A DNA stretch of 64,000 nt from an uncultured candidate division Zixibacteria bacterium (GTDB lineage Bacteria > Zixibacteria > MSB-5A5 > GN15 > FEB-12), in NCBI GenBank assembly GCA_963735035.1, contig CAVTJJ010000004.1, positions 800,001 through 864,000 of the forward strand. Direction: 5' to 3'. Numbering within the stretch: position 1 is the first letter of the stretch; every line of letters starts with the position of its first letter. Shown piece after piece: positions 50,295 to 54,035 of the stretch. Made by a program: the position numbers and the translations under genes. The notes beneath the pieces are model-generated. The model did not search any database. It was not told where the DNA came from and worked only from the letters and a program-made list of their open reading frames with translations.

Positions 50295-51326
50295 CTAAGT
50301 TCACAAACGAAGTGCAACACCTGTTAAAGGTGTTGTCATGGAACGAACATATGCACAGATCAGTCTTGAAGAGCGGTGTGAGATTGCCCGCTTATGTGGC
50401 TCGGGGCGCTCGATTCGGCAAATTGCGGCAGCTTTGGATCGCGCGCCATCGTCCATTGCTCGGGAGATAACGCGAAATCGCAGCCGACAAAGCGGTTACC
50501 TGCCCGCCTGTGCCAACGACCAGAGCCGTGCCCGGCGTTGGACCGGCTCCAAATTGGATCGCCGTCCAGAACTGCGCGACATGGTAGTGATGGGACTATC
50601 TAATGGTTTGTCTCCGGAGTTGGTCGCGGGAAGGCTGGCCGTGGAGATGGGCCGGAAGGTGATTTCCTACGAAACGATCTACCGGTTTATCTACGCGCAG
50701 ATCGCCCGTACTAAGGATTACACTTGGCGGTACTTACTGATCCGTGGCCGAGCCAGACGTAGCTGGCGAGGGTGCAAGAGAGGTCGGTCGACGTCGTCTA
50801 TAGCCCTGCGGGGCCCTATCTCCGCGCGGCCGAAGAGCGCCAAGAGCCGGAAAACACCAGGACACTGGGAAGGTGATCTCATGAACTTCCGAATACCCGA
50901 TCAGAGCGTCCTTGTCCTTCATGAGCGGCGCTCACGCCTGATGATGGGGGTTAAGCTGCCAGCCAAAGATGCCGCCTCGGTTGCTAAGGCCATGTGCACT
51001 CTCCTGGCACCCTTGCCGCACGCGTGGCGACAGACCATCACCTTCGATAACGGCCCCGAGTTCGGCCAACACTACCAACTCCATGACCACGGTATCGAGA
51101 CCTACTTCTGTAACACCTACTCACCCTGGCAGAAAGGTGGCGTTGAAAATGGAATCGGTCGCCTCCGACGAGTACTGCCTCGCCATACCGACCTGACCAA
51201 ACTCTCGCCGAGACGGTTCGCAGACTTCTTTCAAATCTACAATAACACGCCTCGAAAATGCCTGGACTTCCTCACTCCAGCCGAGTTCTTTTGGCTCGAA
51301 CTGTTGCACTTCAAATGTGAATCCAG
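50295..51326 (+). mobile_element. IS30-family insertion sequence
   Basis: Imperfect 25-bp TIRs CTAAGTTCACAAACGAAGTGCAACA and CTGGATTCACATTTGAAGTGCAACA (reverse complement of the right end), 19/25 identical. Confidence 0.85.
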
Positions 51327-51336
51327 CCCCGCCTGA
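50338..51336 (+). CDS. IS30-family transposase
   Basis: HTH RSIRQIAAALDRAPSSIARE.RN; HWEGD, TFDNGPEF, PWQKGGVEN; stop codon lies just beyond the right TIR. Confidence 0.95.
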   Translation: MERTYAQISLEERCEIARLCGSGRSIRQIAAALDRAPSSIAREITRNRSRQSGYLPACANDQSRARRWTGSKLDRRPELRDMVVMGLSNGLSPELVAGRLAVEMGRKVISYETIYRFIYAQIARTKDYTWRYLLIRGRARRSWRGCKRGRSTSSIALRGPISARPKSAKSRKTPGHWEGDLMNFRIPDQSVLVLHERRSRLMMGVKLPAKDAASVAKAMCTLLAPLPHAWRQTITFDNGPEFGQHYQLHDHGIETYFCNTYSPWQKGGVENGIGRLRRVLPRHTDLTKLSPRRFADFFQIYNNTPRKCLDFLTPAEFFWLELLHFKCESSPA

Positions 51337-51450
51337 AGCGGGGCAAGACAGGAAGTAGACGAAGGGTACGAACACGAGTCGGCAGATGTGGACCCCGGAT
51401 CAAGTCCGGGGCAGGCTTTGCCGGGCACGTTTATACAGGAAGAGACTGAT

Positions 51451-51831
51451 ATGACAAATGCACCTGAACATTCCACCGTAGCTGTCCTGGGGGCATCGCC
51501 GAAGGAAGACCGCTATTCATTCAAGGCGGTGCGCATGCTCAAAGAACATCACCACCGCCCGATCCCAGTCCATCCGGCCGGGCATACGGTCGATGGCATC
51601 CCCGGCTTGAAATCGCTCGAGGATATCCGGGTGCCCGTGCACACGGTCACCTGCTATGTCAACGCCGCGATATCAGACGGAGAGTTTGACCGGATCGTCG
51701 CGCTCAAGCCACAGCGGGTGATATTCAATCCCGGCGCCGAGAACGAGAATCTGGCGGTGCGTCTTGAAGCTACCGGAATCGAAGTGGTCCGGGCCTGTAC
51801 TCTGGTGATGTTGCGCACCGGGCAGTTCTGA
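51451..51831 (+). CDS. CoA-binding protein (YccU-like)
   Basis: VAVLGAS....RYS, PVHP, VIFNPGAEN, ACTLV. Confidence 0.88.
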   Translation: MTNAPEHSTVAVLGASPKEDRYSFKAVRMLKEHHHRPIPVHPAGHTVDGIPGLKSLEDIRVPVHTVTCYVNAAISDGEFDRIVALKPQRVIFNPGAENENLAVRLEATGIEVVRACTLVMLRTGQF

Positions 51832-51894
51832 GGTGATCACTTTCTGGTGGCCCACCCGCTGCTATGTACTGTGTCAAGGGCTTTCTGTTCAGGC

Positions 51895-52070
51895 ATAGGA
51901 CTCGAACCAGTCTGCTATTCGTGGTCGCTGACTGGCAGCGCCACAGGCAATGTATCCGCTCGTGACCTGGCGAGGCAGGCAGACTTGCGGACGTGGTCTC
52001 GGTTGGCCCGAGCCACAGCGGGTGGGTCGCTGTTCTCGCGTTAGCTTGGTACGGTTCCGACTCCTTGGTT
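51895..52070 (-). ncRNA. Candidate bridge/seek RNA of the IS110 element
   Basis: Closing stem plus two isomorphic loops whose flanking segments match the target and the donor end. Confidence 0.75.
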
Positions 52071-52073
52071 ATC

Positions 52074-53132
52074 TTAGGCGGCCGCACACGGCTCATAGGC
52101 AACGTTATCAAGCAGAACCCGCCTGACTGCCAAGACCAGTCGTCGAGCTACCGCCACTATGGCTCGTTTGCCGCCGGCACGTTGCTTGATCCGGTTATAG
52201 ACCAGTTGTAAGTGTGGGTCCTTCCGAACGGCAATCCAGGACGATTCCACTAACAAGCCCCGAAGATAGCTGTTGCCCGTGCCGGTAATCCGACCCATCC
52301 GGACATGATCACCGCTGGAATACTGCGAAGGTGTCAGTCCCACATAAGCCGCCAATTGCTCAGCCCGTCCAAAACGACCGACCTCATGCAATTCCAACAG
52401 CAGAGCCATCGCCGTAATAACCCCTATGCCGGGAACGCTACTTAACAGCCGAACTCGATCACGATACTGTGGCAGTCGTGACAACTCCCGCAACAGTCGT
52501 GTCTGCAACGCCAGCTGGTTACTTACCAGATCGTACATCTCCAACAACCGCTCGTAGCTCGCCTGAGCCCAGACATCTGCCAAACACACCTGTCTCAGAC
52601 GCTCTAATAACGGACCGGTCCACCGACCCGTCCCACTGCACACTGAAATACCATATAAGGCCAACTCCGATTTGATCCGACTCTGAAGACGTACCCGATC
52701 TTGAACCAATTGACGACGACGACGTAAGACCTCTCGGTGACCCCGCTGACTCTCATCCGGAACCCAGACCTTCTTCAACAACCCTAACGACAGCAACCAG
52801 GCCAGCTTCCGGCTATCCCGCTTGTCCGTCTTCACCCGATTACCGTAGGCCATCGGCACCAAGCTCGGCGGCGTTACTACGCACTGACCACCCCACGCTA
52901 CCACACAGTCGTGCAGCCAAAAACCAGAAAAACCCGCCTCGTAAACCACGGACACACACCCAGGATCATACCGATCCAGCAAACACCGCAAAGACGCCCA
53001 ATCCCCGTTAATGCTGCCACAGAACAGTTCCACTTCTAACGTCCTCACCGTGACAAACCACTGACGCTTGTGAACATCCACGCCAACAAAAACAGCACTT
53101 CCCACTTCCGCTCCAACTTCGTACCTTCTCAT
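52074..53132 (-). CDS. IS110-family DEDD recombinase/transposase
   Basis: GVDVH, YEAG, KTDKRD, VPGIG, GLTPSQYSSG, AIVAVARRL; SD AGGAGG. Confidence 0.96.
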   Translation of the reverse strand: MRRYEVGAEVGSAVFVGVDVHKRQWFVTVRTLEVELFCGSINGDWASLRCLLDRYDPGCVSVVYEAGFSGFWLHDCVVAWGGQCVVTPPSLVPMAYGNRVKTDKRDSRKLAWLLSLGLLKKVWVPDESQRGHREVLRRRRQLVQDRVRLQSRIKSELALYGISVCSGTGRWTGPLLERLRQVCLADVWAQASYERLLEMYDLVSNQLALQTRLLRELSRLPQYRDRVRLLSSVPGIGVITAMALLLELHEVGRFGRAEQLAAYVGLTPSQYSSGDHVRMGRITGTGNSYLRGLLVESSWIAVRKDPHLQLVYNRIKQRAGGKRAIVAVARRLVLAVRRVLLDNVAYEPCAAA

Positions 53133-53324
53133 CTCGAGCCTCCTGTTCTAAGGATTTATCGTTGTCTTCAGACCACGATACGATACCTTGTCCGAACAGA
53201 GGCTCAAATCACGAACAGTATCATAGTTACTTGCGGGTGGGGTGAGGTTTCACTTGCATAGAACGCACAGCAAGCTGTGGGGTACCAGGCATTTCATTGC
53301 GAATGGGGACGCATCCTCGTCCGC

Positions 53325-54035
53325 CTAGGTCTCGTCGTGATCCAGCCAGGTTAGCTTGGACATTTTGGCCTTGATGGCCACCGTCGCGGTGTCGACCATT
53401 TCTTCCACATCCATAAGGGCGGAGTTGAGAATCAGGTCGTAGTGATGCGGATCGTCGATGTTGTGGTTAAACAAATGCGCGACAAACTTGCGCCGGTCGG
53501 CATCAGATGCTTCGATCGACCGCTCGGCTTCCACCGGAGAAATCTGTTTGTACTTGACCAGGTTCTCGATCCGCTTGTCACGCGGGCAAACCACGCGAAG
53601 GTGAAAACCGCGCTGCGGTCCGAGGATGAAACTCCCGCCGCGTCCCATCAGCACCACGCCGCCGAGCTGCGACATCGACAGCACCGTTTGGCACAGGTGC
53701 TGGCCGTAGTCGCTGTAGTCGACCGATTGTCCCGTGAGAATTGTCTCGGCGAGTAGTTCGATCCGTCCGCGAAAGCGATCGTCGATCGATTCGATAATTC
53801 GTTTGCGAAGCCCCGATGATCGGCAGATCATGTCGATGGCTTCCCGATGCAGGCGCTGATAGCCGAGGCGTGAAGCGAGGCGCGATCCGAAATAGGAACC
53901 GCGACTGCCGGTCTGACGGCTGACCGTAATAATCGGCGCCGGATGAGGGCGACCCTGGATGGCCGGTTCGGTCTCTTTCTTCTCAAGTTCCCACTTGAGA
54001 AGCTGTCGATTTATGATGGCTTCTATCGAGGTCAT
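53325..54035 (-). CDS. Cytidylate kinase-like family protein
   Basis: ITVSRQTGSRG, VLMGRGG, D..R..F, YDLILN; SD AGGAGG. Confidence 0.85.
   Translation of the reverse strand: MTSIEAIINRQLLKWELEKKETEPAIQGRPHPAPIITVSRQTGSRGSYFGSRLASRLGYQRLHREAIDMICRSSGLRKRIIESIDDRFRGRIELLAETILTGQSVDYSDYGQHLCQTVLSMSQLGGVVLMGRGGSFILGPQRGFHLRVVCPRDKRIENLVKYKQISPVEAERSIEASDADRRKFVAHLFNHNIDDPHHYDLILNSALMDVEEMVDTATVAIKAKMSKLTWLDHDET

Follow-up and report, generated by a model that had tools for sequence, protein, structure and literature searches.

A probable bridge RNA (seekRNA) in the downstream tail of an IS1111-type insertion sequence inserted in a repeated palindrome of an uncultured Zixibacteria bacterium

The DNA analysed here (hereafter the window) is a stretch of 64,000 nucleotides (nt) from an uncultured candidate division Zixibacteria bacterium (GenBank assembly GCA_963735035.1, contig CAVTJJ010000004.1, positions 800,001 to 864,000), and it carries on its minus strand an insertion sequence whose recombinase gene is followed by a non-coding tail of 215 nt (52073-51859), the region upstream of the gene being 97 nt long (53229-53133). 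We conclude, with a probability that we put at about 0.85, that this element is an IS1111-type member of the IS110 family and that its tail encodes a bridge RNA (seekRNA) that specifies both the site of insertion and the ends of the element. The case is built on the anatomy of the tail, the copy number and site specificity of the element, the covariation of guide segments with flanks and ends, and the covariation of the stems, each of which was observed directly. The probable placement in the IS1111 type uses the position of the RNA, the subterminal repeats, a protein motif and the length of the protein.

The genome holds five full copies of the element and one that is interrupted by a contig end. 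Four of the full copies are identical and 1369 bp long; the fifth, the 1371 bp copy in the window, deviates from them at three positions, namely an A/G change in the 5′ leader, one additional G directly ahead of the start codon, and one additional C at 51977/51978 that none of the other four has (in these lengths one AG core is counted with the right end, the AG at 53231-53230 being equivalent). All five full copies lie at the same AG of one palindromic repeat, and beyond the half-sites the DNA around them is unrelated. The target had been called a palindrome in the first-pass annotation of this DNA, made from its letters, and the joined half-sites are indeed a near-perfect one with two 9-base arms around AA; the central AA and a CCACC tail break the symmetry, which explains why the insertions have a single orientation. 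A search of the genome found no empty copy of the exact 20-mer and no empty copy of the 15 bases that the guides cover. Sites with one mismatch are present (8 distinct ones) and all are empty, and in all 8 the mismatch falls in the core or in the right half that the guides read. Palindromic repeats related to the target make up a family with it, and one sister, CCCACAGCAAGCTGTGGG, has 40 copies genome-wide, of which one (53262-53280, minus strand) adjoins the insertion, and the element lies within a repeat cluster between two convergent genes.

The RNA stretch that we analysed is the 176 nt between 51895 and 52070 on the minus strand, and all the sequence strings that had been quoted for it were found there at the positions assigned to them (Table 1). 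Its minimum-energy fold has a free energy of -68.6 kcal/mol (z = -3.30; 0 of 200 shuffles fold as well) and includes a closing stem and two hairpins. The closing stem had been proposed to surround two modules of the same design, and in the fold it does, but its 10 pairs are interrupted by one bulge and one mismatch and it is only partly kept in relatives (GAACC/GGUUC in locus L063, GCGAA/UUCGC in L155; these were judged by direct reading only, because the flanks align poorly). The two modules (52018-51984, hereafter module 1 or the target loop, and 51946-51912, module 2 or the donor loop) have equal length, identical sub-lengths and 21 of 35 positions identical; their proposed likeness therefore holds, with one correction, that the U of the "CU" said to open each module is better read as half of a stem-closing U-G pair with the G that follows CCAC (U-G in 9 of 9 RNAs in module 1 and in 8 of 9 in module 2).

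Three of the guide arms are legible in the window alone, just as had been proposed. The two arms of module 1 are the complement of core plus right target and a copy of left target plus core, and the AUAGCAG of module 2 is a copy of the element's right end plus core; in the RNA these words sit at offsets 44 (right-flank 10-mer), 80 (left-flank 7-mer) and 152 (end 7-mer). A repeat search returned the right guide as an 11-nt, 100% complementary inverted repeat of 52016-52026 with 51851-51861. When the 176-nt RNA was shuffled 200,000 times with its mononucleotide composition kept, the 10-mer arose in 130 shuffles, the left 7-mer in 5,816 and the end 7-mer in 1,753, and no shuffle held all three.

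Table 1. Features of the insertion sequence, its RNA and its target site (positions are those of the window)
Feature	Position	Strand	Basis
Whole insertion sequence	51859..53229	-	same exact span in five full copies; flanks diverge beyond the conserved half-sites
Left target half CCCACCCGCA + core AG	53230..53241	-	identical in 5/5 full copies
Left end: 3-nt extension TAA, then subterminal inverted repeat CTATGATACTGT	53215..53229	-	direct reading
-10-like TATGAT in left end	53225-53220	-	direct reading
Recombinase gene, 352 amino acids, IS110-family DEDD + Ser type	52074..53132	-	Pfam, NCBIfam, motifs
Bridge RNA/seekRNA body, from 5′ to 3′ strand of closing stem	51898..52064	-	fold; architecture kept in 9 aligned relatives
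Closing stem, 5′ strand GGAGUCGGAACC	52053..52064	-	minimum-energy fold
Target-loop outer stem, 5′ strand, GCGAG AA CAGCG	52028..52039	-	RNAalifold helix, columns 46-53 with 115-121
Right target guide CCCACCCG + CU	52017..52026	-	complementary to top strand of core AG + CGGGTGGG, 10/10
Target-loop inner stem and hairpin, GUGG CUCGG GCCAA CCGAG A CCAC G	51992..52016	-	helix, columns 64-68 with 99-103
Left target guide CCGCA + AG	51984..51990	-	identical to left flank + core, 7/7
Target-loop outer stem, 3′ strand, holding the window-only extra C 51977/51978	51970..51983	-	copy comparison, alignment
Right donor guide UUGC, unpaired C, U	51945..51950	-	register common to 6/8 elements with known left end
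Donor-loop inner stem and hairpin, GUGG CGCUG CCAGU CAGCG A CCAC G	51920..51944	-	fold, alignment
Left donor guide AUAGC + AG	51912..51918	-	identical to right end + core (51865-51859)
Closing stem, 3′ strand GGUUCGAGUCC	51898..51908	-	minimum-energy fold
Right end: TTGACA, subterminal repeat ACAGTACATAG, then C	51861..51877	-	direct reading
-35-like TTGACA in right end	51877-51872	-	direct reading
Subterminal repeat ACAGTACATAG	51872-51862	-	direct reading
Right target half CGGGTGGGCCACC	51846..51858	-	identical in 5/5 full copies

Relatives of the element were gathered by a shared donor-loop word or by a covariance model; their recombinases are 34-66% identical to that of the window and they occupy other sites. 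A scan of metagenomes with a 15-nt donor-loop pattern gave 119 stretches, 6 of which encode a relative of the recombinase; the remainder are apparently chance hits to a short word. From the phylum, 5 of 285 genomes contributed elements, the window's own included. The covariance model (R1, 9 RNAs) matched 10 of 73 loci at E ≤ 0.01, and among the 55 distant loci it matched only L061. As a sequence family the RNA is far more restricted than the protein, and the more distant tails were therefore read by exact-word search. In the scores that follow the constant core is excluded, and the registers come from the alignments and were never fitted to an individual element. Loci that were kept out of the permutation tests are L156 (broken gene, one-base shift needed), L203 (which shares the target of L076), L105 (whose contig has no flank), the copies in genome G141 and L210 (target loop absent), and L031/L032 and L011/L012 (not alignable to the model); L064 has no flanks on its contig either, and the flank on L200 served for scoring its right guide.

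The right guides agree with their own flanks at 8 (L001), 3 (L063), 7 (L155), 5 (L140), 3 (L118), 8 (L064/L200), 7 (L076), 5 (L073) and 7 (L061) of eight positions, which is a mean of 5.9, as against 2.1 in the 72 non-own pairings, and none of 100,000 permutations reached the sum of the own pairings. The left guides agree with their own flanks at 5, 3, 5, 5, 5, 4, 2 and 4 of five positions (mean 4.1, versus 1.18 for non-own pairings), a sum that was reached by one permutation in 100,000. Covariation of guides with flanks was the check that the first-pass annotation had set beforehand for its proposal, namely that this is the bridge RNA of an IS110-family recombinase with particular arms reading target and donor, and the fact that guides change along with flanks and ends argues, from sequence comparison, that the proposal is correct. 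The distant L031/L032 (34% identical) lie outside these tests and point the same way, with an exact right-flank 10-mer, a left-flank 7-mer and their own right-end 7-mer in the order seen in the window. In the window itself the 5′ target arm is ambiguous, in that it is also 9/10 identical to the left half-site; most targets of the relatives are non-palindromic, and this settles that the 5′ arm reads the right flank.

Could matches of this kind have arisen without any guide function, as fragments of repeats and ends that rearrangements copied into the tail, with the fold belonging to a 3′ untranslated region or a terminator? The target palindrome is repeated many times in the genome, so that fragments of it could be acquired, and Rfam, searched over 51000-54000 with E up to 10, has no matching family for the folded tail. 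Such copying, however, does not sit with relatives in unrelated, non-palindromic sites, whose different arms match their own flanks at the same two positions beside the conserved hairpin, nor with the joint absence of the three guide words from all the shuffles, the compensatory changes in the stems around the arms (below), or an element scan that contained no terminator-like site. This explanation was already disfavoured, and we consider it very improbable.

The stems around the arms were examined in an alignment of nine RNAs, in which RNAalifold encloses the target loop, as an internal loop, between two stems, one outer and one inner. Compensatory changes are present in 10 of the 12 stem pairs around that loop; 6 of the 7 outer-stem pairs are altered on both sides, and 4 of the 5 inner-stem pairs show such changes. 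With the donor inner stem included, 92.2% of the cells are paired, compared with 77.6% in shuffles, and 10 pairs are changed on both sides, where shuffles average 5.4 and none of 500 attains 10; in a control in which the partners were slid by 1-3 columns pairing fell to 24-56%. In the four identical copies of the genome the outer stem is GCGAG-AA-CAGCG with UGCUG-C-CUCGC. The duplicated loop scaffold that had been proposed for the window exists, with GUGG/CCAC in the inner stems of both loops, in the window, L063, L155 and L156, but it does not extend to the other relatives, where the target-loop stem has been changed by compensatory substitutions.

Module 2 would read the two ends of the element. 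In all elements examined its left donor guide has the sequence of the right end plus core, with variants ATAGCAG, ATAGAAG and ATAAAAG, and since the gathering pattern selected for ATAGC+AG the informative cases are the variants: L061 has ATAGA+AG in guide and right end alike, and in L031/L032 (ATAGA+AG) and L011/L012 (ATAAA+AG) the right-end 7-mer recurs within the non-coding tail. The other arm of module 2, previously described as matching the left end only weakly, is in fact a short and offset right donor guide. If the bases of this arm are numbered backwards from the inner stem, the first is U and the second, which may be any base, stays unpaired; the third, a C, pairs with the core G, and the fourth to sixth pair with the left end's three variable bases, those that sit between the core and the subterminal repeat CTATG. 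These triplets are TAA (window, L063), TCA (L155), ATT (L140), TTG (L134, L061) and TTA (L207, L073), and the arm is complementary to them at 3/3 positions in 6 of 8 elements and at 2/3 in L061; the window's UUGC pairs with the core G and TAA with one G-T wobble, at a position where L063 has A-T. The donor arms thus appear from the sequences to match and covary with the two ends of the element, although this is the weaker half of the claim.

Several observations weigh against our reading of the tail. Expression of the RNA, its ends, its binding by the protein, the circular intermediate and the chemistry are carried over from what has been published for the family and would apply here by analogy. 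A scan of the integrated element returned no sigma-70-like promoter and no intrinsic terminator. L063, the closest relative with flanks (66% identical), scores only 3/8 (right) and 3/5 (left) in register, and its right guide reaches 9/10 only if the right end has three extra bases and its left guide 7/7 only with two wobble pairs. L118 has 3/8 in the alignment register and 5/8 when shifted by one base, the right guide of L073 fits chiefly through G-U wobble, and L156 with its broken gene fits only after the one-base shift. In the window's own copy the extra C bulges the CAGCG/UGCUG outer stem of the target loop. On the donor side the right pairing spans just 4-6 bp, the right donor guide fails in L073 (1/3), and cross-matches between similar left ends are common if wobble is allowed; the short pairing and these frequent cross-matches make this the softer half of the guide case. 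The donor-loop inner stem hardly varies in the alignment and is uninformative on covariation, in part because the set was gathered with a pattern that contains this stem. Finally, for ISEc11 an 82-nt seekRNA with the target matches only is reported to move a mini-element more efficiently than the long form does (PMC11187229), so that a donor loop may not be needed in the IS1111 group.

This last result, with the statement of its authors that the function of the long form has yet to be established (PMC11187229), suggests an arrangement in which module 1 alone is the working seekRNA, the protein recognises the ends through the subterminal inverted repeats, and module 2 is a structural or processing part of the long RNA whose resemblance to the right end plays no role in donor pairing. 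The shortness of the right donor pairing, the incomplete fits of L073 and L061 and the lack of covariation in the module 2 stem would all be expected of it. What tells against this arrangement is that the 7-mer of module 2 changes along with the right end in three variants, that the 5′ donor arm follows five left-end triplets in one fixed register in those 6 of 8 elements, and that conservation of the RNA is highest in module 2 when elements with recombinases only 36-66% identical are compared. We therefore think it unlikely, and prefer an RNA in which both modules serve as guides.

The structure of the ends fits such an element. The subterminal inverted repeat is 11 bp long with one extra base, CTATG(A)TACTGT lying 3 nt from the left end and ACAGTACATAG lying 1 nt plus the core from the right end (the IS1111-group criterion is a subterminal repeat of 7-17 bp with short terminal extensions), and farther inside there is a second inverted block of 12 nt, 53189-53200 with 51884-51895, that is 83% complementary. 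From TTGACA to the right tip there are 13 bases including the core, and at the left tip 4 bases precede TATGAT; with a single AG in the circle, this spacing would give a junction promoter TTGACA-17-nt spacer-TATGAT. TTGAC near the right end is also present in L063, L140, L156, L118, L031 and L011, and the combination of TTGAC near the right end with TATG near the left end recurs among relatives.

We propose that the element would be excised as a circle in which its right and left ends abut at the single AG core, and that the junction would build the promoter that transcribes the recombinase gene together with the tail. The tail would then fold, probably with processing, into the RNA with its two internal loops; in the donor loop the short 5′ arm UUGC would pair with the core G and the first three bases of the left end, and the DEDD/Ser recombinase held by the RNA would exchange strands at AG. 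The result would be a landing without duplication, in one orientation, in the palindromic repeat CCCACCCGCA-AG-CGGGTGGGCCACC. Contigs of four DNA runs, which cover parts of the element only, contain no circle junction and no empty site.

The window's copy had been described as apparently intact. As far as the protein motifs go this is so, but its three differences from the other copies, one of them in an RNA stem, may mean that this copy is weakened and depends on RNA or protein from the four identical copies, a situation compatible with a guiding RNA in the family as a whole and one that we entertain only tentatively. The extra C, the extra G before the start codon and the leader change are present in this copy alone, and a metagenome contig from one of the four DNA runs, which has 0 other differences, is also without the extra C (a second run contains a diverged relative of the RNA, with 16 differences in 151 nt). 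Against weakening, none of the changes in the window's copy touches a guide, a hairpin, the reading frame or a catalytic motif, and a single bulge in the outer stem may be tolerated.

The recombinase has both the N-terminal DEDD (RuvC-like) domain and the C-terminal Transposase_20 domain (PF01548, E = 1.4e-12; PF02371, E = 2.4e-25), and it matches the NCBIfam model NF033542, "IS110 family RNA-guided transposase", with 226.7 bits against a cut-off of 140. The motifs GVD19, YE65, KTD103KRD106 and S273-G274 are in place (the catalytic role of D, E, D, D and Ser is taken from the literature, and it was the presence of the motifs that we tested), and GLTPSQYSSG at 265-274 fits the IS1111 motif GL-P----S(t)G. 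Its C-terminal domain aligns to the IS621 and ISCro4 transposases, whose structures have been solved, with the SG motif and the D..D motif aligned. Among 8,000 candidate proteins scored against it, 2,517 had E ≤ 1e-30; in the best 120 of these three are 85-91% identical and the next 56-69%, most are on element-sized contigs, and some are named "IS110 family RNA-guided transposase". A tblastn search of plasmids returned 4,071 records, and the matches listed are at most 37% identical and are annotated "IS110 family" only. Reference genomes contain few close relatives: homologues at E ≤ 1e-20 are present in 10 of 61 related genomes (the window's own among them), and only two of them exceed 60% identity.

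The position of the RNA 3′ of the gene and the order of its guides, right before left, had been put forward as distinctive, and they are not. For the IS1111 type a longer non-coding region downstream, subterminal inverted repeats, the motif GL-P----S(t)G and a protein of 330-350 amino acids have been described, as have co-purification of the RNA with the transposase, a top-strand match that lies 5′ of the bottom-strand match in the seekRNA (the reverse of the IS110 type), and joined ends that make a promoter which would also transcribe the tail (PMC11187229); a bridge RNA was predicted in the right end of 93.0% of IS1111 elements, and target and donor loops were shown for several of them, including ISPpu10 and ISPa11 (PMC11208160). 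The downstream RNA, the top-strand-first order, the subterminal repeats and the junction promoter were all published for IS1111, and the supposedly distinctive features are therefore hallmarks of the family.

In the features described for them, the seekRNA elements ISEc11, ISPa11, ISKpn4 and ISPst6 (Siddiquee et al. 2024, PMC11187229) are similar to the element in the window: they share the longer non-coding region downstream, the top-strand segment first, the subterminal repeats with short extensions, GL-P----SG, a protein of ~350 amino acids, a junction promoter, and insertion that always takes place at the same position and duplicates nothing. The element in the window has another repeat as its target, and, unlike in that published account, the downstream half of the window's RNA can be read as a donor loop whose arms covary with the ends. 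With IS621 (Durrant et al. 2024, PMC11208160; structure 8wt6 and related ones) the element shares two internal loops whose arms read opposite strands beside a 2-nt core, a core that lies within the pairings, a right donor guide that pairs discontiguously, a target that is a repetitive extragenic palindrome, and an alignable C-terminal recombinase domain (E = 1.5e-11, SG motif in place), which is the only part of the two proteins in which phmmer detects similarity. As IS621 has been described, it differs in that its RNA is at the 5′ end of the element and not the 3′ end, the order of the arms is reversed, and its core is CT where ours is AG; the element in the window has longer subterminal inverted repeats, and its target-loop domain appears to be nested in the stem that joins the RNA ends. 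ISPpu9 and ISPpu10 of Pseudomonas putida (Pares-Guillen et al. 2025, PMC12288879) are, by their description, also several IS110-family copies in repetitive extragenic palindromes that recombine at an AG present at both ends, and circular intermediates and short non-autonomous derivatives carrying only the small-RNA gene are reported there; the guides of the window's element differ in being in the downstream RNA, and ISPpu9 circles, according to that report, made no junction promoter.

The RNA in the window is a real and ordinary further example of the RNA class described in 2024. What it adds is a cleanly readable and recently active RNA-guided recombinase, with four identical copies and every perfect genomic site filled, in which the four guide arms and the two ends have each been assigned with single-base precision. 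Its relatives aim the same scaffold at about nine sites and so make up a natural reprogramming series for the IS1111 type, which is less studied than IS621, and the donor arms bear on whether IS1111-type elements use a donor loop at all. In other respects the element is ordinary, with a protein family thousands strong in metagenomes that annotation pipelines already call RNA-guided.

Some relatives have lost one loop or most of the element. A related element (recombinase ~36% identical) is present at L202, L206 and L209 in genome G141 and at L210 in genome G142 with the target-loop domain cleanly deleted and the donor loop kept, and some of the deletion copies in G141 and G142 have truncated right ends or a core AG changed to GG. 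At L207 (G142) and L209 (G141) left-end sequence lies only 264-577 bases upstream of the donor loop; by this spacing the two loci are apparently short derivatives without most or all of the recombinase gene, and they resemble the small-RNA-only miniature inverted-repeat transposable element described for ISPpu9 (PMC12288879).

A broader idea, which we offer as a tentative possibility, is that in this widespread environmental branch of the IS1111 type a genuine donor-binding loop makes up the downstream half of the "long seekRNA", and that this loop reads only the few variable bases that separate the AG core from the subterminal repeats. Such a loop would, on the same tentative footing, read one base of the right end and, with a constant offset of one base, three of the left end. 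In that case the loops would be separable in nature, as three G141 copies without a target loop and L207 with little beyond an RNA gene and ends would illustrate, and another copy could provide the target loop with which such elements are moved.

Two further observations concern the targets of relatives. The guides of L063 read a third variant of the same repeat design as the window's target, and the pair looks like natural retargeting among repeat variants. In L200 (genome G033, contig C267, 1-200) the right end is fused to an internal point of the element's own RNA gene, at an AG + ACCTC that is similar to its own target AG+ACCTGACG; the joint could reflect self-insertion at a pseudo-target, or else the repeat may have been misassembled.

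In the 5′ leader of the window's element (53143-53199, minus strand) the start codon of the recombinase is closely preceded by two inverted repeats that overlap each other, and by analogy with what is reported for ISPpu9 they may form a hairpin for translation control. The sole match in the Rfam search of 51000-54000 was Transposase-2 at 51312-51384 on the plus strand, at 18.6 bits against a gathering score of 42.7 (E = 1.4), and this weak match belongs to a neighbouring IS30 element, where it sits at the 3′ end of an IS30-family transposase gene (50338-51336, plus strand; NF033563, 211 bits) that lies ~500 bases from the element described here.

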